Virus record (IMG/VR): IMGVR_UViG_2791355306_000002
Location: 2,603-66,602 of that record
Length of the DNA stretch: 64,000 nucleotides
Source of the DNA: a virus
Taxonomy: Duplodnaviria; Caudoviricetes
Direction: 5' to 3' (one strand)
Shown piece after piece: positions 1-45,916 of this stretch. The first letter of the stretch is position 1, and every line of letters starts with the position of its first letter. A program made the position numbers and the translations under genes. The notes under the pieces were generated by a model. The model ran no database searches. It was not told the DNA's origin and was given only the letters and a program-made list of their open reading frames with translations.

Positions 1-3000
1 GCTCCTTTAAGTATCTTATCATTATAGATATCAGATAACTTAGAACCTCTACCAGTATGTCCTAAGTAACTTACTGCTTGTTGGTTAAACGAAGCAGTAG
101 AAGGTATGAAATCATTTATGTATATAGCTCTTTCTTCACTATTATCATCTGAACTTTTTCTTAATGGTTCTTTAGATACTCTTCTAAATCCTTGAGATTT
201 TAAAAGACTCTCCTCTGATACTGGAGCTATCTTTATATCTATATAATCTTCTACTACATCATATCTATACCCTTTCATCATCAATGCTGGATTACCACCA
301 AAGTTTTTCTCTAAAGACTCTGCTTTATTAGTTCTATGGTAATTCATCATAGCTTCCATACCTTTTGGTTCAGTACGAAGTTTATCTACTATTAGATCTT
401 TAACATCTGATTCTAAATACTCTAAAGCTGCTAAAGTAACATACTTATCAATAGCTGATACTACCTTTTTATTAGGTTTAAGATTTGCTCCAGTGCCTAC
501 TGCCATAGCTATCATAGTAGGATTTTTTACACCTATAGCTCCTTCTACCTCATTTCTATAAGATTGGTAATTCATAAAGTAAGCTAAAGAGTTTGATTGA
601 TTAGTTATATATCTCTTATAATCATCTTTAGAGTACTTACCTACTCTATTTTTAAAGTTATTATCTACTTCTTTTAGCATATCAGAGTAAGCTTTCTTTT
701 TATAACTCTCAATGTTATTTAATATATCAGGTAACTCATCTATAGAGTAATGGTCTAATAAACTAGATAGATCAGTATCTAACATACCTTCACCTAGAAC
801 TTGATTTTCAGCTAGAGTAAGTGGAGTATTGAAATACTCTTCTAAAGCTTCAGTATTATTTTTTATCTCACTAACTCTATTAGCATCAAGTAGATTTCTT
901 TGTCTAGATAAATATTCTGCTTTTCTTTTTACATCACTCATTTGTGATAATTCAGATACTACATATTGTGTAACACCATTGTAGTGAAAACCAAAATCAT
1001 GAGCTACTGATAGAGCAGCTTGAGCAGTTTTATCTCCAACAACATCACTAGCTAATATAGCTACTAATCCTCTTATCTCCTCCCATCTAGAGTTATACTT
1101 TCTTCTTCTAGATTTAGGAACACTTACTAACTTAACTCCCTTAGATTTGACATAATCTTTTAACTTATTCAGTTTCTCAGAAGTTACCTCATCAACTTTA
1201 TCTAAACCTGATGATAGACTATTAGCAACTGTGGTTAATGTATCAGCAGCTTCTAAAGTATTATAAGCCATCTCTTTATCAATCTTATACTCAGCTTTAG
1301 AGTTAGCAGTAGCTATCTTAGTAGCTAGAGCTATCATAGCTTTTTGCATATTATCATTATCTTGATATTTTCTATATATACTATTAAAGAATGTATTAAA
1401 CATCTTCATAGCTTTAGCTACAACTCTTTCTCCAAAGGTCATACCATCATAGTTAGGATCACTTTTGACTTCAATATCTTTTAAACTATTCCATACAGCT
1501 TCATTACTTAAAGCTATAGCTATAAACTCAGACAATCCTTCTATAGTATTATTCTCAAAGTGCCATATTATTCTATTAGCTACTTCTAAATCTTTAGATG
1601 GTATTCCTGAGTTTATATGTTTAGCTAACTTGCTAGGAGTCATTACAGATAGATATCTTTTGTGTAGCATAGAAAGCTCTCTAGTTAATGGATTACCACC
1701 AGCTTGAGCTTTAATTACATAGTATGTAATAGCGTGTAGTAACTCATGTCCATAAGTCTCTTCTAGACTAGCTGTACCTGTAAAGTTACCTTTACTAAGA
1801 GGGATACCTTCTTTAATCAAAATCTCTCTAAGGTTTGTTAGATACTCTCCTTCATTATGTCCTTTACCTTTAGATTTAAAGTATTTAACTTTAACACCAT
1901 TTACTGCTTCACTAGCTAAAGATGATAATTCAGATAGTACTCCTTTTAGATGGTTACTAAACTCTTTAGACATAGCTCTACCATTAGCTTCATCTATATT
2001 TCTCATCTGTTCTTGAGTAGTAGATACCTTATCAGTAGTTAAATCTATTTGAGATACAAACTCATCCATACTAGTATCACCAACTTTAGTATTATCTACA
2101 TTCTCAAATGATTTAAGAACTTCTTTGTTTATCTTATCAAAGATAGAATCTTCCCCTACAATATCTTTAAATAAGTTTTTTAGATATGTTTCTCTATGGG
2201 TGTTTAAATACTCATCTACATTGAAATCTGTCTCTAATTTATTTTTAAAAGCTTCTGCAAAAGCATCAAATTCGTCTCTAGCCTTCTTGCTAAGGCTTGT
2301 TAAATTTGTTTTCTTCTCAAATCCTGACTTAAGGATATTATTTATCGTATTTATTTTGTTTTTAACATCCTCTACTCTATTTGTTGTATTCTCTTTTGCT
2401 TTGTTTGGATTATTACTCTCTTCCCTTATTCCTTTTTTAGTGTTAGGTTCTAGTAGTTTTTCTAAAGCAGAAGCTAATCTTTTTATTACAGCCATATCTC
2501 CTTGATACTCTGTATTAGGTTCAGGTTCTTTAGTAGATTTTGTATCAGGCTCTTTACTCTCTTTTATTTCGTTATTTTTTGTAGGAGAATTTGAACTAGA
2601 AGAGTTATTTTCTTCTGCTTTTTCTTCTATTTCTTCTTCTTTTACTTCTTCTACTATTTCATTATCTGAAGCTACTCTACCTTCATCGTTATCTAGAAAT
2701 TTATCTCTACCAGTATCCATATCTCTACTAGGTGTTAAGCTAAAAGCTCCTTGACCTAAGTTTTTAACATGTCTAGTAAGATTATTAGCTATCTCTTTAG
2801 CTCCTACATCTTTTAAATTTCCTCTTATATTTTCAATTTTATTATATATAAGTTTTTGTAGTTCTTTAATTTCTGCCTTGAACTTTTCAATAGTGCCGTT
2901 AGGTATATGTTTTGTATTATTAGGGATTCTATTATCATAAATAGAGTTTAACATATCCTCTATAGAAGAAAGCTTATCAGCAATATCAGGCTCAGTAATA

Positions 3001-6000
3001 TCTAGCATTAGATTCTTTAAGATATACTCTTTAGGGTCTTGTCCTTTCTTAATATTATCTTTTACTAATTCTAATAAATCTTTTCCTCTTTCAGGATTAA
3101 TCTTAGCTTTATCACTTTCGTGTCCATTTTGCATATTAGAAGCTACTGTTGTTAAATTTTTTACTACAGCTTTATTTACTTCAGATATTGTATATTTCGT
3201 ATGCATTATAGCAGCTAAGCCTTTAGCATACATTACTAAAATGTCTTTAGGTGATACTGTTTCATCAGATTCATTAGATTTTTTATAATCTTTTATACCT
3301 TTATTTATACCGTTAGTGATTTTATCAGATAGTACAGTATTAAAGATACCTTTATCTATTTCACTCATATCTCTAGCAGCTTTAGCAGCTAAAGCAACTT
3401 GTTCATATAGTTGTGATGATGATAAAGCTTCATTAACTTGACTTCTATTATACAGAGATATTATTGATGCTTTAGAAGATCCATCACTAGAGTGTCTTAG
3501 TATAGCATCAAAGATATCGTTTATATCTAATTGACCACCATTTCTATCAGCACTTTCTCCCATAACTTCTGCCATATCAGTACCATCTTTTTGCTGAGTC
3601 ATTATAGCTGTAGGGGTAGCTCCTACACTACTAAATACAATACTAGTGGCATCGTGTTTTATAGAAAAAGGAGGTGTAAGTTGTTTATACACACGCTTTC
3701 CATTCTTCACTTCACCTGTATCTACACTGACTTCAGGATAGTATATATCTAAACCATCAGTAGAAACACTCACTTCATCCATATTTGCCATAGATATTCT
3801 ACCTACATGTCTAGCTTCTTTATTCTCCCCAAATCTCTCTTTAGAATCTACAGTAATAGATGGGAAATCTTTTCTAAGAGTTTCAAGTATCTCTTTATGT
3901 TCTTTTATAGTAAGTAGATATGTAGGGATAGGAGTATCCTCTGTAACTTCATCTACACCTTTTCCTCTTTCCTTTAATTTCTCATTAGCTAACATATCAT
4001 ACTTTTGAGTTAAGATTATTTGGAATAAGTTATGGACACTATTAATAGTGTTATTTACAGATTCATACCCAGGTAAAATAGTATCTCTACTCTCTTTTAC
4101 ACCTTGTCTAGTTACTACTTCCATATGAGAGTTTATAAAATCGTATAAAGACATAGTCTTACCATCGATAGTAACTTTTGCTACTCCAATACCATCAGCA
4201 TTATTTAGTACAAAGGTTTTAAGATTATCAAGATTATCGTTCTTGAGTTTTTGCTCTACTCCATTATAATCCCTATATGTAATAGTAAAGTCTGTAGAAT
4301 GAGATATAACAGTTAAAGAAGTAAAAATACTTTTTACTACACCCCATTCAGGACTATATTTGAATCCTTCATTTTCAACTCTTCTTAGTACCCAATCACC
4401 AAAATTATCAACTACAAATGTAGTAAGACTTCTAATATTAGATGTAAGCCCAGAACCATAACTAGATGGAATAACTATATATTTATTTAGTTTTCTAGCA
4501 TCTTTAGATACACTTGATACTATATTAGAATCCTCATCTACAAATGTTAAATCATTTATATTAGACATTGCTAAGCTGAAAATTTTTACACTATCTTTTA
4601 AAGCTTTGGTTTTCTGTCTATACTCAGCCCTAGTTTCTGTATCTAAGTTAGAACTATTAGGATTAATTCGAAATTTATTTATCATATTCATAAAAAGATC
4701 TTGAACATCTAATATCTCTTTCTTCCCTTCTAGATATGCTTTATCTTCAGGTTTAAGCTTAGTTCCTCCTTCCATTAAACCTCTTAGTTTTAACCCTTTT
4801 TCATCAATATTGTGCCCTAAAAGTTCAGTAGTAGATTTAAAAGCTTTACTAGTTACAATAGCGAATTCTTCATATGTATCCCAAGCTTTATCAGGATTAG
4901 CTTTCTTATCATCAGTAGTGGCTTTAGCACTAAACTTCTCAGGCATTACCTTCTCTTTTAATTCCCCAAAGAAAGATATCCCAGTAGAAAGTAGTGTCTT
5001 AATTGTCTTAGGAGATACAAAGAATGTTAAACCTTTAAGAGCTATACCATTATTAATACCATCAACTTCTTCAACTATGTTATGTCTAAATTCAGTTAGA
5101 TTAGGATTTTTTCCTTTCTCTGCAAGAAATTTCTCTATATTAAATAAAGCATTTAAAGCATGACCTATTTCTTCAATCTCTAACTTAGTACCATCCCCTA
5201 GCTCTATATGTCCTTTATTACTTAAAGCTTTAATTACTTTATCTTTTAATCCCTCAGTATTTACAATAGCTTTACCTACATTTACAGCTCCAGTTTCTTT
5301 ATCTGTCTTATAACCAAAAGCTTGAGCTATAGCTATATAAGTAGAATTACTTAGGTTACCATCATCATTTAATTTCTCTGTTTTAGTTTGTGTCTTTAGA
5401 GTAACTAAGAATCTATGTAGTTTATTACTTTGTGGATTTACTGTAGCACTTTGTAACCATAATCTTCCAGAGCTAAATGTTTTATTAAAGTATATACCCT
5501 TTGTAGCTGCAGATCCATCATTTAGTAAATCTTTTAAATGATTTATACTATTTTCTACTTGAAGATTTTTACCTAATATACTATCTATATCAGAATATTT
5601 TATTCCAGTTTCACCATACAGTATTGTAGGAGTTACACCTTCTTTTAATTTTCTATCATCATCTACATAGTTAGACAAATCTATATATCCTAAAAATTCT
5701 TTTAACTCTTTTTCATTACCTTCTATAAACTCTTTTACATCTTTATGATTCTCTACTACAAATGGAGTGTTTAAGAAAGCATTTATAGCTTTATACATCT
5801 TCTTAGTTAAAGCAAATACACCTTGTTTAGTCTTTACAAATTCCCTCACATTAAAAGGTTCTGTAGAGTATGTACTCTCATAATCACTTTTATCTAATTT
5901 AAAATCTTCTTCTAACTCTCTTATAAATGAGATAGCTGTAGATAAATTTCCTAAACCTTCTTTAGTATATACATTATTTAGATTTAAGATTACTCTTTTA

Positions 6001-9000
6001 TGACTAGTGTTTTCATCTTTCCAATTATTATAGAGATTACTGTACTTTACATCTTTAACTACTACCAATTTTAAATGGTTTAAATTCATTACAGCTGCTA
6101 TACCTAATTCTTGATATATTCTATTAGCATCTGATAAAGTAGCTTTTGATTCATCTACTTCTAAACCTACATCAGAGAGTATTTTCTTACCTACATCTTT
6201 AGCTAAAGTTGATAAAGGTATTCCTCTAAGTAAGAAATCTAAATCTTTTGAAGGGATTTCTCTCATACTTTTAAGATTAGGAGATACTTCTTTTAAATCT
6301 TTATAATTAGTATAAGAAAATCTATAATCAGTTAATGCTTCTAAAGCTCTAATAGTAGCTGAGAATTTAACATTATCATTTAAAAATAAAGTAGAAGTAT
6401 TGTTTATATTCTTATAATTTATATCCTTAGACATTAAAAAGTTAGTTGTGCTTAAAGCACCAAAGTAAGTTAAGAAAGGATTTATATCTAACTTTTCTTT
6501 AAACCCAAATGTTGAGCTTAAAGCAGTATTAATTCTCTCTTTTATTTCTTTTACTTTAGTATCGTTTTTAGTATCGTTTAGATCTCCTAATAAAGATTTA
6601 GGATTATCTTTAGGTTTAAGGATTTCATTTAAATTTAAAAGTCTGCTACTTAGTTCATTTTGTTCGTTACTTTTGTTTATTTTATTTTTTAGCCCATTTA
6701 TTGCTAAGCTTATTACTCCTTTGGCTTTATTTACAATACGATCTATAATCGATTTATCGTTATTTTCTTGTGTATCAATATCTGAATTTTCAAATGTACT
6801 ATCCATCTCTACACCAGCAGTAAGACCATAGAAATCTTTTACATTATTTATATTGTTTGTATTTTTAGAAGTACTACTGGTATGTACATTAACATCAGTA
6901 TCAGTATCTTTACTACTGTCCTTAGTTCCATTTCCCACTCTACTATTACTAAAAGTATTAAAATCTTTTCCTTCTTTAACTGTATAACCTCTATTTTTTA
7001 ATTCATTTTGTACCCAACCTTCACCATTTTTATTCCAATCTCTATTAGCATTTGAAGTGGTATCCATAATAATTTGCCCACCAGCCTCAAGTACTTTAAT
7101 AGCAGTATCTAATGCTCTTTGTCTATTCTCTTCAATATTTTTTCTATTACCACCATTAACAGATACAAATGCTTTTGTATTTTTATCTGGGTTTATATTT
7201 TCATTAACTGCTATCCCAGCTTTCTCAGCGTCCTTCATATAAGTATATGTACTTGAATTTACTACTCCGTATCCTATATAAGCATTAGCTTCATTAGCTT
7301 TTAACTGGTCTTTAATGGCATGTTGTGTTTTTTGTGTTAAAGTAAATCTACGATTTTGATTACCTTGACTATTTTCTTTTCCACCACTAGATTCTATAGT
7401 AGATTTACCACCTCCTTGCTTAGGTATAATTTGTTTTTCTACATCTTTTTTAGGAGTATCTTGTTTAACTTCTTGTTTAGGTTGTGTAGTAGTTTGAGTA
7501 TCCTTTTTAGCTGTTACTTCTTCATTATTTGTAGTAGTGTTGTTATTAGTAGTACTACCCATTTTACTACTACTTGGATCTATTAGATCTAAAGCAGCTT
7601 TGATAGCTCCACCTTCTCTTTCTACTTCCTTTCGTATATTTTTAAACAAATCTTCTATACTAACCTTATTATTTGGTTTAGTAGAGAATACATGTTCTCC
7701 AGACGCAATAGATGCGAATTCTCTTACAGCGTTCATTAAACTTTTTTTATCATCTATATAATTCTGCTTAGGATTATTTAAAGCTTTAATTAGCTCCTTA
7801 GCTCTTTTAGCAATACTTCCTGAAATACTTTCTGAATCCACTTCTTCTGAAGTAGTGTTTTCTTCTACTGGTGTTAAGGTTTTAAGGTAGCTGATTATTT
7901 TGTCTCTACCTCTATAAACTTTTACTTCCTTAAATACTTTATCTATTTCACCACTTGCATCTATATTTTTTGGTACTGTATATATAGCTTCACCAGCTTT
8001 ATTTTCTTTTAGATCTTTAAGGATATAAGTTAATAATCCATATTTAGCTCTATGGCTATTTAACCACCATTTTAAAGATGCTCTATCATCTCTTATAGTC
8101 TTTCCATTCTTGTCGAATTCTTTCTCTTCGTTTTGTCTTTGAGCTATCCTTTTAAGCATAGGAGCTAAACCTTCTTTTACCTCTCCAGTTGATGCCTTAG
8201 TTCCAGTTAGCATTGTACTAAGAGATGTATTTAATATTTGATTTCTACTCTTTTGAAATTCATCATTTTTATCTATTGGCTCACTTAAAACATCTATAGT
8301 TTTATTTATTTTAGATAATAAATCTTGCACTGTTACAACAGCTGATCCTTTAGAATTGTCCCCATTCTTTTCATCAAATTCTTCAGCTAACTCCTCTATA
8401 CCAGTTAGCTCACTAATAAACTTAGAAGCTTTTTTAAGATTATTCAATTGTTCTTGAGTATATTCTTTAACTGCTGCTTTTTGACCTTGCTTAATAGCAG
8501 CATTAATCATATTTTCATAACTACTCAACTTATCTCCCTCACCTTCGTTTTGGGTAGAAATATCGGAAGTTCCTCTTATAGCTCTAGCAAGTAACTGTTT
8601 TACTTGATCTGGATTAGTTAACATTTGTCTAGCTACATAGTAATCTAAAGCAGAATTATTCTCCATTTTCTTTTTAAACTCTGCTAGAGTACTTATAACT
8701 CCATCAGTATCTATATTAGGATCAGTTTTTATTATAGAGTCTATATGTTCATTTACTGCTTGTTCAGTTCTTTCTATAGATTCATATATTATCTCTTGTG
8801 AAGGTATCTCTCTACCATCTTTTTGTATATTGTTAAGGAAACCACTAGCTCCTAAAGAGAATACTTCATTTAGTAAAGGTATGTTTTTATTTACATTTAA
8901 AGGAGAATTTTCTGAAGTATATTCAGGATTGCTTTCCCAATCATTTAAACTTACTTGAGATAGATTATGGAATATATTATTCCTTAGTTCTGCTTCTTCT

Positions 9001-10427
9001 TTAGGGAGCTTAGCTAATGGATTGTCTGTTTCTCTTGTTTGATGAACATTACCTTTAGAGTCAGTTGTCTCTTTTATTGATGAAGAGAACATATCTTTAA
9101 TATTTAAAGTTTTAGACAATTTTGCAGCGTTTTGTTTAGTAGTCTCAAAGATTTCTCTCTCTTTAGCTTTATTAGCTACATAACTTATAGGAGCTGTAAC
9201 TGCTCTAAGTCCTCCACCAAGAGTAGCTCCACCTATAGCTCCTAGTACTGCTGATTCTTTAAGGTCTTGAAGATTCTCTTCTTTAGATTTATTCCACCAA
9301 TCTTCATTAGCTACCTTTTTAAATGATTCTTGACCTACTTCAGATATAGCTTCCATAGTAGCCATAGAACCTAATGCTACTGCAGGTCTAGCAGCTAATC
9401 CAGCTCCTTTATATAACCATTTACCAGGAGCTAAAGCATAGTTATCTACAAACTCATCTATACTTTGTTTAGCTTTAGTTTTATTAATAGCATCAAATAC
9501 AGACCTAGTAGGAGACTTAACCACACCAGCAGCATGTTTTAACATCATTAGTTCAGGTACAGCAAAGGCTGCTTGACCTGCAGCTCCAATGATATCTAAA
9601 GCATCTGTAGTATTAGCTACTCCTTGAATTTGGTTAGCAGATTTACCTAGCTTTTTACCTTGTTCTTCTTTATTTCCTTCAGCTAGGTAAGTAGCTCCAA
9701 GAGCTGCTAAACCTCTAGCAGTACCTACACCAGGTACAGCCATAAGAGCTGTCTCAGCTACACTAGGAGTAAGATCTAAAGCAAAGCTACCAGTTAAAGC
9801 TAGGTTAGATAGTAATCCTTCATTCTCATATGAGTCCATTAAAGTATCATAATCTATTAAATGTTGTGAGTTTATCTTAGCTCTTTGTTTATCAAGAGGA
9901 GAAGTTATCCAATTAGCAAACTTACTAAACCCATTATGCTCAGCTTGTTCTTTAGCAAATATCTCATCATAACTTTTATCTGTATCAGATAGTAGATATT
10001 TACCAGCAGAATTCATATGGTTAGCTGCATAATCCAGTATAAGCCCTGTACCTTGAGGTATTCCAGCAGCTAACCTAAGTCCCATATCTTTCCACTTAGC
10101 TGAAAGACTATAGTCAGCTATATAAGTAGATTTATCTCTGTTTAAAGGGTTATCTTCTTGAACAGTAGAAGAGAACATATCTGCATACATATTCATTTTT
10201 GCATTATCAAAAAACTCTTTGTTTTGTCTAATATCTTTAACTTGTTTTATATTGTTAAAAAAACTAAAGATATCCTTAGACCCAACTACTTTAGCTAGAG
10301 CTAATCCTTCTTGTATTTCTAGATCCCTATCAATCTCATCAAGAAAAGCAGAAGAGTCAGATAAGTTTTTAGCTTTATTAATAGCTTTTTGAGTGATTGT
10401 CTCAAATTTTTTTGTAACATTGTTCAT
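1..10427 (-). CDS. Virion-encapsidated RNA polymerase (N4 gp50-like), >3470 aa, runs off the window start
   Basis: ATG at 10427 after AAGGA; same frame wherever checked down to position 3. Motifs SSGRLW..NPQSNKLHR (~5420-5475), EEVDGINNG (motif A, ~5046-5072), RKLNKYIVIPSSYGSG (motif B, ~4450-4497), DIFDA (motif C, 3504-3518), HELLH (1734-1748). Confidence 0.92.
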   Translation of the reverse strand, partial: MNNVTKKFETITQKAINKAKNLSDSSAFLDEIDRDLEIQEGLALAKVVGSKDIFSFFNNIKQVKDIRQNKEFFDNAKMNMYADMFSSTVQEDNPLNRDKSTYIADYSLSAKWKDMGLRLAAGIPQGTGLILDYAANHMNSAGKYLLSDTDKSYDEIFAKEQAEHNGFSKFANWITSPLDKQRAKINSQHLIDYDTLMDSYENEGLLSNLALTGSFALDLTPSVAETALMAVPGVGTARGLAALGATYLAEGNKEEQGKKLGKSANQIQGVANTTDALDIIGAAGQAAFAVPELMMLKHAAGVVKSPTRSVFDAINKTKAKQSIDEFVDNYALAPGKWLYKGAGLAARPAVALGSMATMEAISEVGQESFKKVANEDWWNKSKEENLQDLKESAVLGAIGGATLGGGLRAVTAPISYVANKAKEREIFETTKQNAAKLSKTLNIKDMFSSSIKETTDSKGNVHQTRETDNPLAKLPKEEAELRNNIFHNLSQVSLNDWESNPEYTSENSPLNVNKNIPLLNEVFSLGASGFLNNIQKDGREIPSQEIIYESIERTEQAVNEHIDSIIKTDPNIDTDGVISTLAEFKKKMENNSALDYYVARQMLTNPDQVKQLLARAIRGTSDISTQNEGEGDKLSSYENMINAAIKQGQKAAVKEYTQEQLNNLKKASKFISELTGIEELAEEFDEKNGDNSKGSAVVTVQDLLSKINKTIDVLSEPIDKNDEFQKSRNQILNTSLSTMLTGTKASTGEVKEGLAPMLKRIAQRQNEEKEFDKNGKTIRDDRASLKWWLNSHRAKYGLLTYILKDLKENKAGEAIYTVPKNIDASGEIDKVFKEVKVYRGRDKIISYLKTLTPVEENTTSEEVDSESISGSIAKRAKELIKALNNPKQNYIDDKKSLMNAVREFASIASGEHVFSTKPNNKVSIEDLFKNIRKEVEREGGAIKAALDLIDPSSSKMGSTTNNNTTTNNEEVTAKKDTQTTTQPKQEVKQDTPKKDVEKQIIPKQGGGKSTIESSGGKENSQGNQNRRFTLTQKTQHAIKDQLKANEANAYIGYGVVNSSTYTYMKDAEKAGIAVNENINPDKNTKAFVSVNGGNRKNIEENRQRALDTAIKVLEAGGQIIMDTTSNANRDWNKNGEGWVQNELKNRGYTVKEGKDFNTFSNSRVGNGTKDSSKDTDTDVNVHTSSTSKNTNNINNVKDFYGLTAGVEMDSTFENSDIDTQENNDKSIIDRIVNKAKGVISLAINGLKNKINKSNEQNELSSRLLNLNEILKPKDNPKSLLGDLNDTKNDTKVKEIKERINTALSSTFGFKEKLDINPFLTYFGALSTTNFLMSKDINYKNINNTSTLFLNDNVKFSATIRALEALTDYRFSYTNYKDLKEVSPNLKSMREIPSKDLDFLLRGIPLSTLAKDVGKKILSDVGLEVDESKATLSDANRIYQELGIAAVMNLNHLKLVVVKDVKYSNLYNNWKDENTSHKRVILNLNNVYTKEGLGNLSTAISFIRELEEDFKLDKSDYESTYSTEPFNVREFVKTKQGVFALTKKMYKAINAFLNTPFVVENHKDVKEFIEGNEKELKEFLGYIDLSNYVDDDRKLKEGVTPTILYGETGIKYSDIDSILGKNLQVENSINHLKDLLNDGSAATKGIYFNKTFSSGRLWLQSATVNPQSNKLHRFLVTLKTQTKTEKLNDDGNLSNSTYIAIAQAFGYKTDKETGAVNVGKAIVNTEGLKDKVIKALSNKGHIELGDGTKLEIEEIGHALNALFNIEKFLAEKGKNPNLTEFRHNIVEEVDGINNGIALKGLTFFVSPKTIKTLLSTGISFFGELKEKVMPEKFSAKATTDDKKANPDKAWDTYEEFAIVTSKAFKSTTELLGHNIDEKGLKLRGLMEGGTKLKPEDKAYLEGKKEILDVQDLFMNMINKFRINPNSSNLDTETRAEYRQKTKALKDSVKIFSLAMSNINDLTFVDEDSNIVSSVSKDARKLNKYIVIPSSYGSGLTSNIRSLTTFVVDNFGDWVLRRVENEGFKYSPEWGVVKSIFTSLTVISHSTDFTITYRDYNGVEQKLKNDNLDNLKTFVLNNADGIGVAKVTIDGKTMSLYDFINSHMEVVTRQGVKESRDTILPGYESVNNTINSVHNLFQIILTQKYDMLANEKLKERGKGVDEVTEDTPIPTYLLTIKEHKEILETLRKDFPSITVDSKERFGENKEARHVGRISMANMDEVSVSTDGLDIYYPEVSVDTGEVKNGKRVYKQLTPPFSIKHDATSIVFSSVGATPTAIMTQQKDGTDMAEVMGESADRNGGQLDINDIFDAILRHSSDGSSKASIISLYNRSQVNEALSSSQLYEQVALAAKAARDMSEIDKGIFNTVLSDKITNGINKGIKDYKKSNESDETVSPKDILVMYAKGLAAIMHTKYTISEVNKAVVKNLTTVASNMQNGHESDKAKINPERGKDLLELVKDNIKKGQDPKEYILKNLMLDITEPDIADKLSSIEDMLNSIYDNRIPNNTKHIPNGTIEKFKAEIKELQKLIYNKIENIRGNLKDVGAKEIANNLTRHVKNLGQGAFSLTPSRDMDTGRDKFLDNDEGRVASDNEIVEEVKEEEIEEKAEENNSSSSNSPTKNNEIKESKEPDTKSTKEPEPNTEYQGDMAVIKRLASALEKLLEPNTKKGIREESNNPNKAKENTTNRVEDVKNKINTINNILKSGFEKKTNLTSLSKKARDEFDAFAEAFKNKLETDFNVDEYLNTHRETYLKNLFKDIVGEDSIFDKINKEVLKSFENVDNTKVGDTSMDEFVSQIDLTTDKVSTTQEQMRNIDEANGRAMSKEFSNHLKGVLSELSSLASEAVNGVKVKYFKSKGKGHNEGEYLTNLREILIKEGIPLSKGNFTGTASLEETYGHELLHAITYYVIKAQAGGNPLTRELSMLHKRYLSVMTPSKLAKHINSGIPSKDLEVANRIIWHFENNTIEGLSEFIAIALSNEAVWNSLKDIEVKSDPNYDGMTFGERVVAKAMKMFNTFFNSIYRKYQDNDNMQKAMIALATKIATANSKAEYKIDKEMAYNTLEAADTLTTVANSLSSGLDKVDEVTSEKLNKLKDYVKSKGVKLVSVPKSRRRKYNSRWEEIRGLVAILASDVVGDKTAQAALSVAHDFGFHYNGVTQYVVSELSQMSDVKRKAEYLSRQRNLLDANRVSEIKNNTEALEEYFNTPLTLAENQVLGEGMLDTDLSSLLDHYSIDELPDILNNIESYKKKAYSDMLKEVDNNFKNRVGKYSKDDYKRYITNQSNSLAYFMNYQSYRNEVEGAIGVKNPTMIAMAVGTGANLKPNKKVVSAIDKYVTLAALEYLESDVKDLIVDKLRTEPKGMEAMMNYHRTNKAESLEKNFGGNPALMMKGYRYDVVEDYIDIKIAPVSEESLLKSQGFRRVSKEPLRKSSDDNSEERAIYINDFIPSTASFNQQAVSYLGHTGRGSKLSDIYNDKILKG

Positions 10428-20600: not shown

Positions 20601-20737
20601 AAGGTATTATAGCAGATTATTCTTTAATCCTATTTAAATTTACCATACCTTGTAACATCATTCCTAACTCTTTATACTTTTGAATATCATCTTTAGCTTT
20701 ATTGATTTTTCAGAATAAATTATAATAAAAGCAAAAA

Positions 20738-21466: not shown

Positions 21467-21573
21467 TGTTACGTAGTCCTAATTTACTAAATTGGAAGCA
21501 CAAAGAGTCGTCAATTTAAAAATATGATGTTAAAAAGACCCCTCTATGTGCTAATGATAGTGAAATTATATCA
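21467..21573 (-). promoter_or_regulatory. Promoter (TGATATAAT 21565-21573) and structured ~90-nt leader of the NYN gene
   Basis: Stem 21497-21507/21542-21552 (10 of 11 paired) and a second hairpin over the SD. Confidence 0.55.
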
Positions 21574-21710
21574 TAAAAAATTGATAAAAATCTTAAACAA
21601 TAAATCAAAAATTTTAAAAAATAAGAAATATCAAATTAATATAAAGAACATAATAATGATCTTATCATTCCTAACCAATCTATCATCTTATACATTCAAT
21701 GTTTTTCCTT

Positions 21711-37680: not shown

Positions 37681-37776
37681 GTAGAGACAAAGTTGTATTG
37701 AAAAATTTTATTATTTTTTGTGGAGGGTAATGTAGGACAAATTTGTATTGAAAAATTTTATTTTGGTTTGAGGGTA
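37681..37776. repeat. Imperfect ~50-bp tandem duplication
   Basis: Core TTGTATTGAAAAATTTTATT in both copies, flanked by GACAAA and GAGGGTA. Confidence 0.85.
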
Positions 37777-38305: not shown

Positions 38306-38346
38306 CCCTATCACTGCTATCCAGCAGTGGTAGGGATATTTTTTTA
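38306..38346 (+). terminator. Intrinsic terminator
   Basis: CCCTATCACTGCT-ATCC-AGCAGTGGTAGGG then T run. Confidence 0.75.
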
Positions 38347-38366
38347 TTTATATATTTATATATTTT

Positions 38367-38414
38367 TTCTACAACACAACTACACATTTTCTACACACGC
38401 TACACAACTACACA
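38367..38414. repeat. Cluster of CTACAC/CTACAAC short repeats
   Basis: Five copies in under 50 bp, another near 38472. Confidence 0.75.
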
Positions 38415-38591
38415 GTCTGCTCAGATAGTTTTGTTTCTTGTATCAGTTTCTCTCCCTCTCATTGTTTTTTCCTACACCATTTTCTCCTTCATCACTGCAA
38501 GTATCTGTCTTGGCTTTGCTTGGAGTGGTTTCTTTGTTTGAGTTGTGGCAATTTCTAATTGCTAAAAAATTAATTTATTAAGGAGTGAATT

Positions 38592-38942: not shown

Positions 38943-39035
38943 AGTTAGTTTAGTAAGCTACCTTAATAAATCTTATCTTTCTTAATTCCTTTCGATTCCT
39001 TTCAATACACTCAAAGGTAGCTTATTAAACTAACT
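38943..39035 (+). ncRNA. 22-bp stem with 49-nt loop antisense to the TIR of gene 37960
   Basis: Arms 38943-38964/39014-39035 with one G-U pair; loop 39001-39012 is the reverse complement of 37934-37945. Confidence 0.6.
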
Positions 39036-39350: not shown

Positions 39351-39388
39351 TAATTGAGTAAGCAATAGCTTACTCAATTATTTTTTTA
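39351..39388 (+). terminator. Intrinsic terminator
   Basis: TAATTGAGTAAGC-AATA-GCTTACTCAATTA plus T run. Confidence 0.75.
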
Positions 39389-39415
39389 AATGTCAGAAAG
39401 TTAAAGGAGAATAAA

Positions 39416-39922
39416 ATGTACTATGAATTCGACAATGGAAATAAATATAGTAAAAATAAATACAGCCTTGAAGAGGCAGAGCAACTTAATGCTACTCTAA
39501 ACCATTGTTCTAACTGTATAGATTGCAGTTACTGTACAGACTGTGGTTCTTGTGAGAACTGTCATACTTGTATAAACTGTTGTAGCTGTATAGATAGTAC
39601 AAACTTAGAAAATTGTATAAATTGTGGAGATTGTGAGTATCTCTACCGATCAAGTAATTGTTATAACTGTACAAATAGTCAGAATTTAGAACGATGCAGG
39701 AATTGTAATGAATGTAATGATTGTAGTGATTGTATAAATTGCTGTCTCACAAATAACTCTAAAGGTTGTAAAAGTTGTCTATACTCTGAAAATCTTAGAA
39801 ACTGTAGAGATTGTATAGATTGTCAAAATTGTACCAATTGTATAGATTGTCAAAAATGTAAATCTGTTAGCAATAGAGCTATGTACATAAGAAATATTAG
39901 CATGATGACTGCTTATAGTTAG
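39416..39922 (+). CDS. (Cxx)n cysteine-repeat protein, copy 1
   Basis: Cys at every third position over most of the protein. Confidence 0.85.
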   Translation: MYYEFDNGNKYSKNKYSLEEAEQLNATLNHCSNCIDCSYCTDCGSCENCHTCINCCSCIDSTNLENCINCGDCEYLYRSSNCYNCTNSQNLERCRNCNECNDCSDCINCCLTNNSKGCKSCLYSENLRNCRDCIDCQNCTNCIDCQKCKSVSNRAMYIRNISMMTAYS

Positions 39923-39972
39923 CAGTCATCTGCTACTTATTTTAAAATATCAGAAAGTTTAAAAGGAAAAAC

Positions 39973-41856
39973 ATGGAAAAATATAGTAGAAGATCAGCAA
40001 AAGCTAAAATTAAAGCAATATGTGAATCACAGGATAAAAGTATCGAAGTTCTATCTAATAAAATATTAGAGTGGAAAGAAGAGTATTTAAAAGGTAACAT
40101 TGGTAAGCCTTACAAAACAAAAACTGATGTAGTAAATATGGTAACTGAAGATATAGCTGATGAGTTAGCCATATCTATACTATTTACTACAATCCTCTTA
40201 GGCAAGACTACATTTCAAAGCTACATAGGTCATGTAGCTTCTCAAATAAATTTAGAGATAGAAAGTTTTAGAAAAGCTCAACTTGCTGCTTGGGTATTAG
40301 CTTACTGTGATGGTGGAGCTTATAATATCATAGCTCCAGCAATTGGTTCTATGATGAATTATAGTGTAGAACCAAAGATATCTTTATCAATAGAAGATTC
40401 ACAAGAGTTAGCAAGATGTTTCTTCTTACCTCCTAGCAAGGATAAGTTAAATGATTGGACTAATCCATACAATGGTGGATATAGCTTTGAGAGAAGCTAT
40501 GCTATACTAGGTGATAGCTTTAACAAGCATGATTATCCAATAGATTTAAATACTCTAAATATCTTACAATCAGTTAAATATAAATTAACCAATAATGTTG
40601 ATACTCCTCAAAAACTTGATGAAGAAGCAAGTGATGATAGAGTAGTTCAATTTGCTTTAGCTGAGATACAGACTAGAAAGGTTCTAAAAGAGTATAGAGA
40701 TGATGAGTTCTCTTTTATGTGGAAATTCGATAAAAGAGGTAGAGTATATAGCTGTGGATATGATATAAATGTCCAAGGTGATAGTTATAGAAAAGCTTCT
40801 TTAGAATTTGCTAAAGAAGAGATAGTAAATGAGTCTGGTATGAGATGGTTAAAAATAGATATAGCCAATCATTATGGCTTAGATAAAGAGTTATGGGAAG
40901 ATAGAGTTAAGTTTGTAGATGAGAATGATTCTATCTTAGAAGCTTTAGCTGATAAGGCTGATGAACCACTACTATATATCCAAGCTGTTGAGGCTTACAG
41001 AAAAGCTCAAAGAGGATTACCAACTGGATATATAGTTAGACTCGATGCTACAGCCTCTGGTCCTCAAATAATGAATACTCTATTTAGAGATATTGAAGGT
41101 ATGAAATATCTAAATGTCCTTGGAGATGATACAAGATATGATTTATATACCTTAGTAGCAAAGATGATGTATGAAAATACCAAAGATTCTCAGATTTGGA
41201 GAGATTTAAATAATGACTTTGCTAAAGTAAGAAAAATCGTCAAAAAGCCAATTATGACAAGCTTTTATAACTCAACTTCTAAACCAAAAGAGATATTTGG
41301 TGAGAATACCATAGAGTTACAAGAGTTCTATAAAGCTTTAAAGAGATATTGTGAAGGAGCTTTAGCAGTACAAGATACTATTAATGCTTGTTGGAGTAAC
41401 TCTAAAGATGTAAATATCTGGACTTTACCAGATGGACATACAGCTTATTGTCCAGTAAGCAAAGTATTAGAGAGCAAAATAGAGATACCTGAAAAAGGTA
41501 TGAAGATTACTTATACTCATACAGTTCAAAAAGCTAACTTTGCTGAAAGTAGATCATTATGCCCAAATTTGGTACATAGTTTAGATGGTTATATTTGTAG
41601 AGAGATAGTTAAAAGATTACACTCTAAAGGTATAGAGGTATCTCCAATCCATGATAGTTTTGGAGTACATCCAAATAACTGTGATGAGCTTAGAAAAGTA
41701 TATAGAGAATTATTAGCTGAGATTTATGAAGAAGATACTCTGACAAATCTGTTAAAAGAGATTACAGGTAGTGATATCAATGTAGATATCCCAGCTGCTA
41801 ATGAAGACATAGCTCAAGCCATTAGAGATAATGTAAATGGCTATTACATCTGTTAA
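39973..41856 (+). CDS. T7-family single-subunit RNA polymerase (N4 RNAPII-like, one chain)
   Basis: DKRGRVY, LDATASGPQ, RKIVKKPIMTSFY, PNLVHSLD, IHDSF. Confidence 0.93.
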   Translation: MEKYSRRSAKAKIKAICESQDKSIEVLSNKILEWKEEYLKGNIGKPYKTKTDVVNMVTEDIADELAISILFTTILLGKTTFQSYIGHVASQINLEIESFRKAQLAAWVLAYCDGGAYNIIAPAIGSMMNYSVEPKISLSIEDSQELARCFFLPPSKDKLNDWTNPYNGGYSFERSYAILGDSFNKHDYPIDLNTLNILQSVKYKLTNNVDTPQKLDEEASDDRVVQFALAEIQTRKVLKEYRDDEFSFMWKFDKRGRVYSCGYDINVQGDSYRKASLEFAKEEIVNESGMRWLKIDIANHYGLDKELWEDRVKFVDENDSILEALADKADEPLLYIQAVEAYRKAQRGLPTGYIVRLDATASGPQIMNTLFRDIEGMKYLNVLGDDTRYDLYTLVAKMMYENTKDSQIWRDLNNDFAKVRKIVKKPIMTSFYNSTSKPKEIFGENTIELQEFYKALKRYCEGALAVQDTINACWSNSKDVNIWTLPDGHTAYCPVSKVLESKIEIPEKGMKITYTHTVQKANFAESRSLCPNLVHSLDGYICREIVKRLHSKGIEVSPIHDSFGVHPNNCDELRKVYRELLAEIYEEDTLTNLLKEITGSDINVDIPAANEDIAQAIRDNVNGYYIC

Positions 41857-41860
41857 ATAT

Positions 41861-41897
41861 AATGTAGGACACTCTTTGAGTGTTCTACATTTTTTTT
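41861..41897 (+). terminator. Intrinsic terminator after RNAP
   Basis: AATGTAGGACACTC-TTT-GAGTGTTCTACATT plus T run. Confidence 0.8.
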
Positions 41898-42000
41898 ATT
41901 TATTTTTTTCTGATGATGGAGAGTTTGTTTCTGATTTGGGGGGCATTCGCCCCCTTTTGTGATTGTTTTTAATTATAATTTAATAAAAAGCTAAGTTATA

Positions 42001-42330
42001 TGTTATAATACTTTTGCTATAGGTAATTATGCATTACTCGGTCTCTTTATTATATTATATTATATTAATAATACCTATAGCTTTTAAGTTAGGAGATTTT
42101 TTTTCTTTTACATGTTTTTCCTTAAATCTCCTAACTTAAGGGATATATTTATATTTGTTAGCTTTTAACAAATATGCCCTTACGCCTTCATAACTTGTCA
42201 TAAACTCCTATTGCATATTTTATTCCAATAATCTTTACCTAAGGAAGGCTAGGTAAGGATTATCTTTTTACTTGTGATTTTACTCGTTATTTAAACTAAG
42301 CAGCCATTTACTGCTTATATTTTAATACTA
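42001..42330 (+). ncRNA. Sigma70-driven multi-hairpin RNA/leader, one loop antisense to the RNAP TIR
   Basis: TGTTATAAT 42001-42009; stems at 42016-42081, 42084-42139, ~42151-42175, ~42228-42263, ~42297-42317. Confidence 0.55.
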
Positions 42331-42347
42331 CTTTTAAGGAGATATCT

Positions 42348-42617
42348 ATGTTAGATACAGAAAATAAAATATTTGTTGTCCTAGATTCAAAGGATCAATT
42401 TATTGGGACTTATAAATTAGGAGAGATAACAAGATTATATCTCAAAGATAGTTCTTTTAAAGAAAAGATTGATAACAAATCTTTTAAAGTATATGTTCAA
42501 GATGATGAGAAGTTCTTCGACTTACTTAAAAAAGGTTTAGGACTAAACAAAATGCTTGAGAAAATAGCAGCATTAAGTGAAACCCTTAGTTACCTAAGGG
42601 ATAAAAGACTTATTTAA
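42348..42617 (+). CDS. Hypothetical protein, paralog of 43088
   Basis: Shared FVVL..L.E.T..Y..F..DN..Y..D..K pattern. Confidence 0.7.
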   Translation: MLDTENKIFVVLDSKDQFIGTYKLGEITRLYLKDSSFKEKIDNKSFKVYVQDDEKFFDLLKKGLGLNKMLEKIAALSETLSYLRDKRLI

Positions 42618-42630
42618 CTAAAGGGCAGAT

Positions 42631-43062
42631 ATGGAAGATGATTACTGGGAATTTGGAACGAACAAATGGAGTAAAGAACATTTCTCTTACAAAGAAGCTT
42701 TAAAACATTCAAAAACATTAGAAAATTGTAAGTACTGTATCAATTGTTACAACTGCAAAGATTGTATAGCTTGTGAATCATGTGATGATTGTACTCAATG
42801 TAGTTGTTGTGATTGGTGTGATAAATGTACAAATTGCTATGCATGTAACTGGTGTGAATCATGTATAAATTGTGCTTACTGTGGCACTTGCTATGAGTGT
42901 AAAAAGTGTTTTGGCTGTGTAGATTGCTCACATTGTGATACATGTAAAGATTGTCAAGATGTAGATGACTATAAAAATCTAGAAGCTGTAGATGGAGATA
43001 TGACTCTCCTCATTGAGTATTTTGGATCTGAAATAGAAAAAGAGATAACTCAATTCGATTAA
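42631..43062 (+). CDS. (Cxx)n cysteine-repeat protein, copy 2
   Basis: NKWSK..SYKEALKHSKTLENC then Cxx repeats. Confidence 0.85.
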   Translation: MEDDYWEFGTNKWSKEHFSYKEALKHSKTLENCKYCINCYNCKDCIACESCDDCTQCSCCDWCDKCTNCYACNWCESCINCAYCGTCYECKKCFGCVDCSHCDTCKDCQDVDDYKNLEAVDGDMTLLIEYFGSEIEKEITQFD

Positions 43063-43087: not shown

Positions 43088-43318
43088 ATGAAAGATTTTG
43101 TTGTTTTACAAAAAACATCAGAAAAAACAGACATATTTCTTTTTCTGAATTTAAAAGAACTAACAGAAATGTATTATGAAAATAAATTCTTTAGAAGAGA
43201 TGTTGATAATGGAAGACTTATTATCTATATGAGAGACCCTAAGAAAATTCAAGGTATGTTACATTCTCAACATAACTTAGACATAATCTCAGATAAACTC
43301 ATGGAGCTAATCCAATGA
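43088..43318 (+). CDS. Hypothetical protein, paralog of 42348
   Basis: Same pattern as 42348. Confidence 0.7.
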   Translation: MKDFVVLQKTSEKTDIFLFLNLKELTEMYYENKFFRRDVDNGRLIIYMRDPKKIQGMLHSQHNLDIISDKLMELIQ

Positions 43319-43686
43319 GAGTAGAAGATTATTACCTTATAGATGGTAATTACTTTTCAAAATGGAAATACACTTATGAAGATGCCTTGGAAATGTCTGA
43401 AACTCTAATTAACTGTAAAGAGTGTATAGATTGTCAAGACTGCATAGATTGTGAGTATTGTATAGGTTGTACAGACTGTAGAGAATGCCAAAGATGTGAA
43501 TGGTGTAGTAATTGCATCAATTGTACAGATTGTATGTATTGTTATGAATGTTACAAATTAGAGGGGAGTCTTATTTGTACGAAATGTAAATATTCTAAAA
43601 ATCTTTTTCAATGTTATAAGTGTGAGGATTGCTATGACTGTGGAAAAATTTTTAATTGCGAAAGACAAGAGAAGTTGCATGGATAA
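43315..43686 (+). CDS. (Cxx)n cysteine-repeat protein, copy 3
   Basis: DGNYFSK..TYEDAL..SETLINC then Cxx repeats. Confidence 0.85.
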   Translation: MRVEDYYLIDGNYFSKWKYTYEDALEMSETLINCKECIDCQDCIDCEYCIGCTDCRECQRCEWCSNCINCTDCMYCYECYKLEGSLICTKCKYSKNLFQCYKCEDCYDCGKIFNCERQEKLHG

Positions 43687-43695
43687 GGACCTAAA

Positions 43696-44634
43696 ATGAA
43701 ATCTTTCTTTTATATACCTAGATCCAAATACTATTTCATAGATGGTAACTATTTTTCTAAAAAGAAACATACATACAAACAAGCTGTTAAAGCTTCTAAG
43801 ACCTTGATAAATTGTACAGGGTGTATTGATTGCTATAAATGTACTGACTGTTCATGGTGTGAGAAGTGTAGAGAATGTACATATTGTTATATGTTATTTA
43901 ACTGTGAGAAATGTGTTAGTTGTTCATTTTGTCAAGAGTGTAGTAAATGTATAGAACTAAACTTCTCATATAACTGTAATAACTGTTTTTTCTGTAATCA
44001 TATAGAAATATGTAATGAGTGTATGTATCTAAGTTATAAACATAATCATGGCTTTAATAATTTAAATAAGGAGTGTTCGATGGAACAAATATTTTTAAAT
44101 TTAAAAGAGTGGAGAAGAGAGAGAAATATATCTTCTCAAATGCAAAGGGATAACTTTATAACTCTAATTCAAGAAGAGTTAAGAGAGTATTATGAAGCTA
44201 AAAATGTTGAAGAACAGATAGATGCTCTATCTGATATGGCAGTAGTTGCTATAAATTGTAGCAAATCATCTGCTCCAATATTTTTCCCAGGAGGTTACAA
44301 AGATATTGTAACTAACGATAAAGTATCATTTGGTGTAGCCATAGATAAGATAAAAGAGTTAGACTTTGATGATTCTGAAATAATGAAATTTTTAATCCTA
44401 ATAGCTAACAAGATAGAAGAGCTAGGTTATGATTTTATTCTATGCCTTCACGAGACAGTAAAAGAAATCTCATCAAGAACAGGACATTGGGATAAAGAAA
44501 AAGGTAAGTGGATTAAAAACACTTCAGAAGAAGCTAAAAAGATGTGGTACAAAGCAAACTACAAAAAATGTAGGATAATCGAAAAAGGCTGGGATGAATA
44601 TACTACAATAACTCGTTATAAAGGAGAAATATGA
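43696..44634 (+). CDS. Cysteine-repeat domain (copy 4) in frame with a MazG-like NTP pyrophosphohydrolase domain
   Basis: QEELREY..EQIDALSDMAVV, ETVKEISSRTG; internal AAGGAG plus ATG at 44080. Confidence 0.7.
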   Translation: MKSFFYIPRSKYYFIDGNYFSKKKHTYKQAVKASKTLINCTGCIDCYKCTDCSWCEKCRECTYCYMLFNCEKCVSCSFCQECSKCIELNFSYNCNNCFFCNHIEICNECMYLSYKHNHGFNNLNKECSMEQIFLNLKEWRRERNISSQMQRDNFITLIQEELREYYEAKNVEEQIDALSDMAVVAINCSKSSAPIFFPGGYKDIVTNDKVSFGVAIDKIKELDFDDSEIMKFLILIANKIEELGYDFILCLHETVKEISSRTGHWDKEKGKWIKNTSEEAKKMWYKANYKKCRIIEKGWDEYTTITRYKGEI

Positions 44635-45574: not shown

Positions 45575-45607
45575 AAAACCAAGACAGATCTGGTATATCT
45601 GTCTTGG
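45575..45607 (-). terminator. Hairpin ending the minus-strand peptide transcript
   Basis: CCAAGACAGAT/ATCTGTCTTGG 11-bp stem followed by TTTT on the minus strand. Confidence 0.6.
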
Positions 45608-45624
45608 AACAAGTAAATCGACAA

Positions 45625-45711
45625 TTATTTTTTAAGGAGTTCTTTTAGCTCTTCTTTAAAAAAGCTAATTATCCCAATAATAATTGTAACGGATAAAGTA
45701 AGTAAATCCAT
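45625..45711 (-). CDS. 28-aa type I toxin-like peptide (MDLLTLSVTIIIGIISFFKEELKELLKK)
   Basis: AGGTGG SD 5 nt before ATG; TM helix plus charged tail. Confidence 0.7.
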   Translation of the reverse strand: MDLLTLSVTIIIGIISFFKEELKELLKK

Positions 45712-45760
45712 TGTGGCCACCTAGTAGTAAAATCCTCCCTACACACCCAACTAAATATCC

Positions 45761-45840
45761 AAAAAAAAAGCCCGAACCCCAAAGAGTTCAGGCTTTATAC
45801 TACTAGGTTACTTGTTTTTACGGAGATACCAGCATCCGTA
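45761..45840 (-). ncRNA. ~80-nt sRNA/leader complementary to the SD region of the 28-aa peptide gene
   Basis: TATAAT 45846-45851 (minus), 5' hairpin, unpaired centre, terminator with G-U pairs and U9 tail. Confidence 0.65.
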
Positions 45841-45916
45841 GGGAGATTATATCTAATATTATATAAATTTATTTTTAAACATTATTACTAGATTTAAAAA
45901 TATAAAAAGGAGGAAA

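Follow-up and report, generated by a model that had tools for sequence, protein, structure and literature searches.

The hairpin array described here lies at 42001-42330 of a 64,000-nucleotide stretch of viral DNA (the window), which covers bases 2603-66602 of a 66,602-bp virus record (IMGVR_UViG_2791355306_000002) that IMG/VR classes as a provirus. The array follows the gene of a phage RNA polymerase on the plus strand and is predicted to encode a small RNA (sRNA). On balance, the reading that we favour is that of a trans-acting antisense sRNA of ~255 nt, made by the host RNA polymerase, that would block translation of the phage middle polymerase. The polymerase gene (39973-41856, plus strand) encodes a 627-aa single-subunit RNA polymerase (PF00940, E 6.6e-38) whose best phage relatives are RNAP1 and RNAP2, the two subunits of RNA polymerase II (RNAPII) of N4-like phages, at ~30% identity, and therefore the two N4 subunits are fused into one chain in the window. 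The simplest account of the comparisons between related phages would be an sRNA gene that is conserved in place and architecture and whose seed is kept complementary to the start of the RNAPII gene. The features of the region, all of which are on the plus strand, are as follows, with z denoting the folding energy relative to shuffled controls.

39963..39980, plus strand: proposed target, the translation start of the polymerase gene, with the Shine-Dalgarno (SD) sequence AAGGA and the ATG at 39973; predicted mean unpaired probability 0.63.
41861..41899, plus strand: intrinsic terminator T1, a 14-bp stem with a T8 run, z -7.63, conserved in the relative L001.
41938..41961, plus strand: GC-rich hairpin GGGGGGC-ATTC-GCCCCC followed by TTTTGTG, a putative second terminator and/or hairpin-type phage promoter.
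41980..42009, plus strand: host sigma-70-type promoter with TTAATA, an 18-nt spacer and TG-T-TATAAT; the extended -10 element TGTTATAAT is at 42001-42009.
42016..42272, plus strand: predicted sRNA; the -10 box gives its presumed start, and H4 with the following T tract its presumed end.
42016-42025/42072-42081, plus strand: hairpin H1, 10 bp at the predicted 5' end with a 46-nt AT-rich loop, z -1.67.
42082..42141, plus strand: hairpin H2, with a perfect 16-bp stem (42084-42099/42124-42139; 18-19 bp with G-U pairs) and a 24-nt loop (42100-42123), z -5.30.
42111..42123, plus strand: anti-start segment CATGTTTTTCCTT of the H2 loop, complementary to 39963-39975 at all 13 nt; predicted unpaired probability 0.99.
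42151-42160/42166-42175, plus strand: hairpin H3, 10 bp with a 5-nt loop, z -4.49.
42176..42227, plus strand: pyrimidine-rich single-stranded stretch that holds ACTCCTAT (42204-42211) and TATTTTATTCC (42216-42226).
42228-42263, to 42270 with CTTTTT, plus strand: hairpin H4, the probable sRNA terminator, 14 bp including one G-U pair with an 8-nt loop, z -4.64.
42297-42317, to 42325 with a T-rich tail, plus strand: hairpin H5, 7 bp with a 7-nt loop, z -3.71, located 30 nt before the next gene.
42335..42350, plus strand: start of the first downstream gene, with the SD sequence AAGGAG and the ATG at 42348; the gene is absent in the close relative X1, which keeps the hairpin region.

An earlier reading of this DNA from its letters alone (the original prediction) had described a host-type promoter at 42001, five stem-loops behind it, and a perfect 16-bp stem whose loop is antisense to the polymerase start. 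All three are borne out, with H1 being weak by energy, and the loop segment 42106-42123 is complementary to 39963-39980 at 17 of 18 positions. Chance tests of this complementarity that are confined to the window gave mixed results. A 17/18 match against any of the 67 start sites of the window was reached in 0/1000 mononucleotide shuffles of the loop, and an exact match of 13 nt was reached in 2.9%. When the whole RNA was compared with the polymerase start site alone, a 13-nt match was found in 0/500 and 0/400 dinucleotide shuffles. The polymerase ranks first among the 67 start sites as a match of the sRNA (13 nt; the next reach 11, 11 and 10 nt), and its start site is the best partner of the H2 loop among 8,862 genome-wide windows (-19.3 vs -17.8 kcal/mol). 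Two other early genes share GAAAAACAUG, and the sRNA would pair more weakly there. On the late strand, 21699-21713 (minus) repeats 15 nt of the polymerase start region (TAAAAGGAAAAACAT) with no open reading frame (ORF) behind them; the original prediction had named this copy, at 21699-21710, as a caveat, and the copy is real. It may be due to chance or may be a decoy for the sRNA.

The original prediction had gone further and proposed a polycistronic antisense array with the same design as a hairpin at 38943-39035, and neither proposal was supported. Only one segment of the RNA has a supported target. Loop 1 against the start site at 24294 gave P = 0.003, yet this site is only third genome-wide, and no significant start-site target was found in the window for the 42176-42227 stretch, the H4 loop or the 42264-42296 stretch (P = 0.57-0.82), in keeping with the remark made at the time that the other anti-start strings lacked a target there. 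The string ACTCCTAT recurs in loops of the relatives L017 (5553) and L014 (7107), which is weak evidence, as an 8-mer common to three 300-nt AT-rich sequences is by rough estimate not rare. The 38943-39035 hairpin has a 22-bp stem (one G-U) and a 49-nt pyrimidine-rich loop, lies within the early operon and lacks its own promoter. In the window, pairing of the loop with the first early start site reaches -33.2 kcal/mol (0/1000 shuffles, P < 0.001). The stem is identical in L001 at 44/44 nt while the loop differs (49 vs 43 nt); the L001 loop against its own start site gave P = 0.39, and its best partner elsewhere (-25.2) was indistinguishable from chance.

What appears decisive for the antisense reading is the comparative evidence. 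The original prediction had staked itself on co-variation with the start region of the polymerase, and such co-variation was found in two related phages, L014 and L017, whose polymerases are 60% and 50% identical to that of the window and whose loci were obtained by an alignment-based scan. Nine combinations of RNA and start site were compared with identical settings and 400 dinucleotide shuffles each. The cognate combinations gave exact matches of 13 nt in the window (0/400), 12 nt in L014 (0/400) and 12 nt in L017 (P = 0.003), whereas the six non-cognate combinations gave just 6-9 nt (P = 0.41-0.98), which is chance level. The cognate P values by energy are 0.018, 0.003 and 0.010, and a separate earlier run agrees; by duplex energy one non-cognate pair, the L017 RNA against the start site of the window, is also low (P = 0.020, and 0.026 in the other run). 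In L017, ATTTTTATTCCT is a 12-nt exact complement of the phage's own polymerase start AGGAATAAAAAT(G), and the match lies 245 nt past the polymerase stop codon, compared with 255 nt in the window. The L014 segment CTCCTTATTGTT, ~50 nt after the predicted RNA start, complements its own polymerase start AACAATAAGGAG. Each 8.9-10 kb locus holds a sole complement of at least 10 nt to the polymerase start, and it lies in this RNA. Additionally, the 12-mer occurs once in the whole 66,326-bp L014 record, plus the start site itself, and once in the L017 record, where the only other copies are two early start sites with the same motif. The three anti-start segments have predicted unpaired probabilities of 0.99, 0.68 and 0.76 vs RNA means of 0.42-0.46, and those of the targets are 0.63-0.85. 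All three segments cover the SD sequence, and the matched part of the start site varies by lineage (SD-to-AUG, upstream-to-SD, and SD-to-AU). For more distant lineages, searches with 18-mer patterns were too strict to inform and returned just the start sites themselves and one 3-mismatch site on C. concisus G002 contig C12.

The predicted RNA has a promoter of a recognizable kind. The box at 42001-42009 is the sole plus-strand extended -10 box in the window. The motif TGNTATAAT occurs 8 times in total, once on the plus strand and seven times on the minus strand, and this count is not above chance (8 vs 9.93 +/- 3.25 in 100 shuffles). The placement of the boxes is what stands out, since 7/8 are intergenic and point at downstream operons in a window of which 6.2% is non-coding according to an approximate gene list made for this analysis (binomial P = 2.6e-8). 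The six intergenic minus-strand boxes head late operons and feature AT-rich upstream DNA with no clear -35 box. The leaders behind five of them are about 26-92 nt long and the sixth (20614) has no downstream gene, while the 42001 box is followed by a 332-nt leader that holds terminator-like hairpins. This placement supports a genuine class of host-type extended -10 promoters, to which the promoter at 42001 would belong, and it fits the N4 rule, given in the part of a review used here, that late genes are transcribed by the host enzyme (review).

The folding of the region is better than expected for four of the five hairpins, H2-H5, each of which is far beyond its shuffled controls; H1 is energetically marginal, with 14/200 shuffles folding equally well. 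No perfect inverted repeat in the window is longer than the 16-bp stem of H2. Taken as a whole, the region folds with z -4.56 on the plus strand and -5.35 on the minus strand. H4 and the 38943 hairpin each have an internal stem mismatch, and both mismatches are G-U pairs on the plus strand, which speaks for that strand. The plus strand is pyrimidine-rich here, with GC and AT skew the reverse of those in the flanking genes. A 36-aa ORF at 42029-42139, which is hydrophobic as expected from T-rich DNA, was rejected as a gene; in the close relatives X3 and X7 a 2-nt deletion at 42097 falls within it, and it has no counterpart in L014 or L017. No minus-strand ORF of at least 30 aa was found within 41972-42347. 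A scan against Rfam 15 gave 0 matches at gathering score in the whole window and only sub-threshold matches in 41850-42400 (E 2.6-9.7), and no tRNA or tmRNA was found. These models support a non-coding, hairpin-rich RNA at 42016-42272 that would have its own promoter and terminator. RNase III substrates feature roughly two turns of uninterrupted double-stranded RNA, for which stems of the length of H2 are suitable, and by analogy long stems of the H2 type could be processed by this enzyme.

The hairpins of the array are unlike the hairpin promoters of N4-type phages. The N4 promoter hairpins have a 5-7 bp stem and a 3-4 nt loop and lie ~15 bp upstream of the start, whereas H1-H5 have stems of 7-19 bp and loops of 5-46 nt; only the GC hairpin at 41938-41954, which is outside the array, fits. 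In the N4-like Pseudomonas phage LUZ7, the middle-promoter hairpins have a stem of at least 6 bp and a 3-4 nt loop, as given in the sections of the LUZ7 report used here (PMC9163698). The GC hairpin of the window and its relatives resembles these LUZ7 hairpin middle promoters (PMC9163698). Its homologues are present in L001, L016 (~5470-5500), L017 (5415-5440), L014 (6765-6785) and L018-L020, and they feature a 5-6 bp stem and a 3-4 nt loop, with TTTTGTG or CTTGTGAAG behind the hairpin. Relatives with as little as 36% identity have such a hairpin past the RNAPII gene, and in L018-L020 it lacks a T run.

The architecture of the region is conserved at several distances. Close relatives (~93-96% identity) come from animal-gut metagenome runs and two small isolate data sets, and their contigs are collinear with the window over 41269-42346 or 41584-42674 with few 1-2-nt indels. 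Neighbouring small genes are deleted in some of them, at 42346>42630 in X1 and at 42674>43071 in X3 and X7, and the hairpin region is retained. The sequencing runs listed as containing the sequence included no RNA run. L001, whose polymerase is 83% identical, retains both terminators and a promoter box, TGATATAAT. In L017 the stretch directly after the polymerase gene holds the GC hairpin, then TTTTGTGG and a homologous promoter ending in TATAAT. The predicted L017 RNA is ~205 nt long (5481-5685, z -3.76) and features a 10-bp stem with a 58-nt loop, analogous to H1, followed by two further hairpins and a strong terminator. The RNA region of L014 lies two genes further downstream and has an identical TGTTATAAT box and the GC hairpin; its predicted RNA (6761-7033, z -6.60) features several hairpins and a strong terminator, after which there is a 15-bp hairpin with a large loop. 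A promoter, 200-270 nt of hairpins and a terminator are thus common to L014 and L017, and in both phages the terminator would end the RNA 65-150 nt ahead of the next gene. A MAFFT alignment of the three leaders (window, L014 and L017) was uninformative, as the sequences are not alignable. Within 6334-6380, L014 features a second TGTTATAAT box; the 5' leader behind it contains CTCCTTA, which pairs with the SD sequence (TAAGGAG) of the same gene, and this leader looks like a cis translational lock.

Other searches for relatives added little. Those of phages (blastn), plasmids, metagenome contigs by protein and genome contigs by single protein gave no useful match, and the downstream proteins found just cysteine-repeat look-alikes among viral contigs. 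The representative genomes of the Campylobacter family gave matches in 1/142 and 1/325, both times in the same C. concisus genome. A metagenome pattern match, L007, was set aside as chance because it is a ciliate-type telomere-capped contig, and the pattern of the H2 stem was found among viral contigs only in three giant-virus contigs, again by chance.

Several observations weigh against the antisense reading. By duplex energy, 20% of 300 loop shuffles pair equally well with some start site, and the duplexes are AU-rich, at -15 to -20 kcal/mol. The plus strand is pyrimidine-rich and would therefore pair generically with purine-rich start sites, and the total folding energy picks no strand because z is similar on both. 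Complements of at least 12 nt are found somewhere on its own strand in the 64 kb for 26/67 start sites; since such complements are common genome-wide, the case rests on the location of the match and not on its length. The element that carries the anti-start segment differs by lineage (apical loop, 5' linker, small 3' hairpin). The L014 region was located via the match itself, which makes it post hoc, and only the identical promoter box and the GC hairpin speak for its homology to the window; the L017 region was inspected as the stretch after the polymerase gene before its match was noticed. L001 diverges from the window directly past the -10 box, and its contig extends just 30 nt further. Five lineages were examined for a match to the polymerase start site (the window, L014, L017, L015 and C. 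concisus), and it is found in three of them: over 59-63 kb each, the longest complement is 11 nt in the L015 record (45% identical) and 10 nt in the C. concisus contig (44-46%). Because these two lack the match, the feature would be confined to one sub-clade.

The hairpins could instead form nothing but a structured 5' leader of the downstream operon, serving 5'-end stabilisation, RNase III cleavage or attenuation (H4 and H5), in which case the complementarity would be functionless. H1 does begin at the predicted 5' end, the terminator-like H4 and H5 closely precede a gene, RNase III would accept stems of 16-19 bp, and the generic pairing of pyrimidine-rich RNA described above, with a fifth of the shuffled loops equal by energy, would account for some complementarity. 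This explanation is nevertheless unlikely. Complementarity that is restricted to cognate pairs in three lineages is unexpected for a mere leader, X1 retains the region after losing the first downstream gene, and the strong terminators of L014 and L017 would end the RNA short of the next gene. The leaders behind the other gene-heading host-type promoters are also far shorter than 332 nt. Leader and trans roles may, however, coexist. An explanation by chance or decay, in which the anti-start segments are decayed starts of former minus-strand genes and the hairpins are ordinary palindromes and terminators, is highly improbable. The frequency of long start-site complements in the window and the gene-less copy at 21699-21713 (minus) agree with it, as does L022, where genuine minus-strand genes begin at the complements of the polymerase start; the L014 site could likewise begin a 20-codon minus-strand ORF. 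The three lineages, however, match their own polymerase start and not one another's, and each match lies in non-coding DNA downstream of a host-type promoter. Read on the minus strand, the segment gives ATG-TAA in the window and lacks a start codon in L017, and thus there is no conserved minus-strand ORF.

A further possibility is that the array acts as DNA, as a replication origin, as hairpin promoters for the phage polymerases, or as one of a pair of operators located here and at the polymerase start. Phage T7 has promoters and an AT-rich stretch, its origin, just past the polymerase gene, and the window has an AT-only stretch (TATTA repeats, 42046-42076) between the arms of a 10-bp inverted repeat. 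Both strands fold equally well, and a repeated operator would co-vary among lineages in the same way as an antisense seed. N4-type polymerases use DNA hairpins, and the middle promoters of LUZ7 are hairpins according to the sections of the report used here (PMC9163698). A DNA element is, all the same, improbable. The stems far exceed those of the N4 and LUZ7 promoter hairpins in length, as do three of the five loops (8-46 nt) in size; no two hairpins share a sequence, and iterons are absent. G-U pairs on the plus strand account for the internal stem mismatches, and the anti-start segment is predicted to be single-stranded in the RNA. Additionally, occlusion of the SD sequence by antisense pairing fits better than a fixed operator because the matched part of the start site varies by lineage.

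In the antisense reading, the host RNA polymerase would transcribe the DNA from 42016 to ~42272, starting at the consensus extended -10 promoter just past the terminators of the early operon. The RNA would fold into several hairpins, and the 24-nt apical loop of the longest (H2) would expose CAUGUUUUUCCUU, which would pair in trans with the SD sequence and AUG of the mRNA of the N4-type RNAPII and more weakly with the two early genes that share GAAAAACAUG. The pairing would block ribosome binding, and the polymerase for middle transcription would then not be made. The sRNA could act late in the lytic cycle, shutting early functions off, because it would depend on the host polymerase; given the integrase of the phage, it could also serve as an RNA immunity factor in the lysogen. 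N4-like phages feature a textbook three-polymerase cascade and have long been considered strictly lytic. To our knowledge, Campylobacter lacks Hfq. That the sRNA is the immunity repressor of temperate N4-like phages, made constitutively in the lysogen and blocking translation of RNAPII from the prophage or a superinfecting phage, is possible but doubtful. If it were so, the three-polymerase cascade of N4 would be halted at the early-to-middle switch, and the start-site copy at 21699-21713 (minus), on late transcripts, could be a decoy that relieves the repression. The sRNA could then also halt genome entry, since N4 needs middle transcription to complete DNA uptake, as stated in the part of a review used here (review).

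An sRNA made by the host polymerase that co-varies with the start of the middle polymerase would be a concrete, testable control point of the cascade. No published regulator of RNAPII synthesis in N4-like phages was found in a literature search that covered few subscription journals, and within that literature the sRNA would be the first to be proposed. The sections used here of a survey of N4-like proviruses describe no mechanism that silences such prophages (PMC10654107).

The window phage is, judged from its genes, a temperate, integrating, N4-like (Schitoviridae-like) Campylobacter phage, because the record begins with an integrase and homologues of the polymerase sit on Campylobacter contigs. 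The first ORF of the record (L031:1-1068, left of the window) is a tyrosine integrase (PF00589, E 5e-19). The sources of the polymerase's close homologues label them as proteins of C. vicugnae, C. sp. RM12176, C. hyointestinalis and C. fetus, and some of them are on contigs of 1.6-1.7 Mb. The polymerase homologues listed span roughly 96-45% identity, and many are on contigs of 40-1,700 kb. Integrase-carrying N4-like proviruses are already known from genome mining, as reported in the sections of the survey used here (PMC10654107). The portal protein of the window is 35-55% identical to N4-like portals. A giant ORF at 3..10427 (minus strand, >3,475 aa) in the opposed late module is a candidate virion RNA polymerase; a 1,000-aa stretch of it was searched, and residues 401-813 of that stretch (1401-1813 of the ORF) show a weak similarity, 26% over 413 aa (E 1e-17), to the virion polymerase genes of N4-like phages. 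The layout is as in N4, with early genes running rightward from ~37,960 and the polymerase gene the last of them, replication-type genes after it on the plus strand, and structural genes running leftward from 37,527.

Additional features were observed around these genes. Two direct repeats (~38-50 nt) at 37686-37773 are upstream of the first early gene, where L017 has three to four (~1960-2110), and they are candidate early promoters of the virion polymerase. Two consecutive early genes are preceded, at 39383-39418 and 39940-39975, by a T-run hairpin and then the conserved leader TCAGAAAGTT(T)AAA(A)GGA, and GAAAAACATG is common to three early start sites. Four paralogous cysteine-repeat (CxxC) ORFs of phrog_15341 are located around the polymerase gene and the sRNA (39416-39922, 42631-43062, 43315-43686 and 43696-44000), one of which is mostly deleted in X3 and X7. 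The polymerase gene of some relatives features insertions, of 932 nt in X1 and 1,010 nt in X3 and X7 (window sites 41258-41269 and 41555-41584); L001 has an insertion of ~950 nt at the second site (5617-6572), which holds a 238-aa ORF with no Pfam match. These insertions look like introns or homing elements. An island at 19700-21600 within the late module features a MazF/PemK-like ORF (19862-20251, plus), a 40-aa membrane-like ORF (~20447-20569, plus) and an NYN-domain ORF (20738-21466, minus). The same island holds the orphan extended -10 box at 20606-20614 (minus), which is followed by two small hairpins and no gene and is a candidate for a second sRNA. Two more plus-strand intergenic stretches, 38340-38500 and 45600-45900, are pyrimidine-rich with inverted skew and feature CTACAC repeats, CTCC motifs and several hairpins.

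The predicted sRNA can be compared with several known systems. Phage T7 has RNase III hairpins between its early genes, including one after gene 1, within one polycistronic early transcript. Both phages thus have long hairpins in the non-coding stretch directly after the gene of a phage RNA polymerase; the T7 hairpins, unlike the window RNA, lack a separate promoter, and none of their loops is complementary to the start site of the polymerase. P22 sar and lambda OOP are small phage RNAs that block a regulatory gene by pairing, and they are encoded on the opposite strand of their target and fully complementary to it, whereas the window RNA is on the strand of its target, 2.1 kb away, with a 13-nt seed. 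LUZ7 makes short non-coding RNAs of <250 nt from intergenic DNA in the late stage driven by the host polymerase, according to the sections of the report used here (PMC9163698). These RNAs differ in that they lie between orf69 and orf70, and those sections report no target, function or relation to the RNAPII genes (PMC9163698).

The closest likenesses are to the c4 RNA (immI) of phages P1 and P7 and to CJnc190 of C. jejuni. In the excerpts on c4 used here, it is a small structured RNA of a temperate phage that acts as an immunity factor, with exposed segments directed in trans against a ribosome-binding site (RBS) of lytic control on the same strand, as is predicted for the window RNA. The c4 RNA is cut from the same operon transcript as its target and controls an antirepressor, whereas the window RNA would have its own host-type promoter, is located downstream of its target behind two terminators and is directed at an RNA polymerase. 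There is no homology in sequence or structure between the two RNAs, and the window RNA has no Rfam match. CJnc190 pairs through a C/U-rich loop with an RBS and start codon and represses translation, and RNase III frees its mature form from a precursor with an extended stem-loop, as described in the sections of the preprint used here (bioRxiv 10.1101/2021.03.19.434396). It shares with the window RNA the host genus and the design, predicted here, of a loop against the RBS and start codon; as described there, it differs in being chromosomal, in having a cis-encoded antagonist and in having a target in flagellin modification, with homology to the window RNA judged by Rfam scans alone. By analogy with P1 c4 and CJnc190, the window RNA would be a phage-encoded case of an already known form of control, that of a loop against an RBS, and would add a phage-encoded example to the sRNA control of this kind in Campylobacter.

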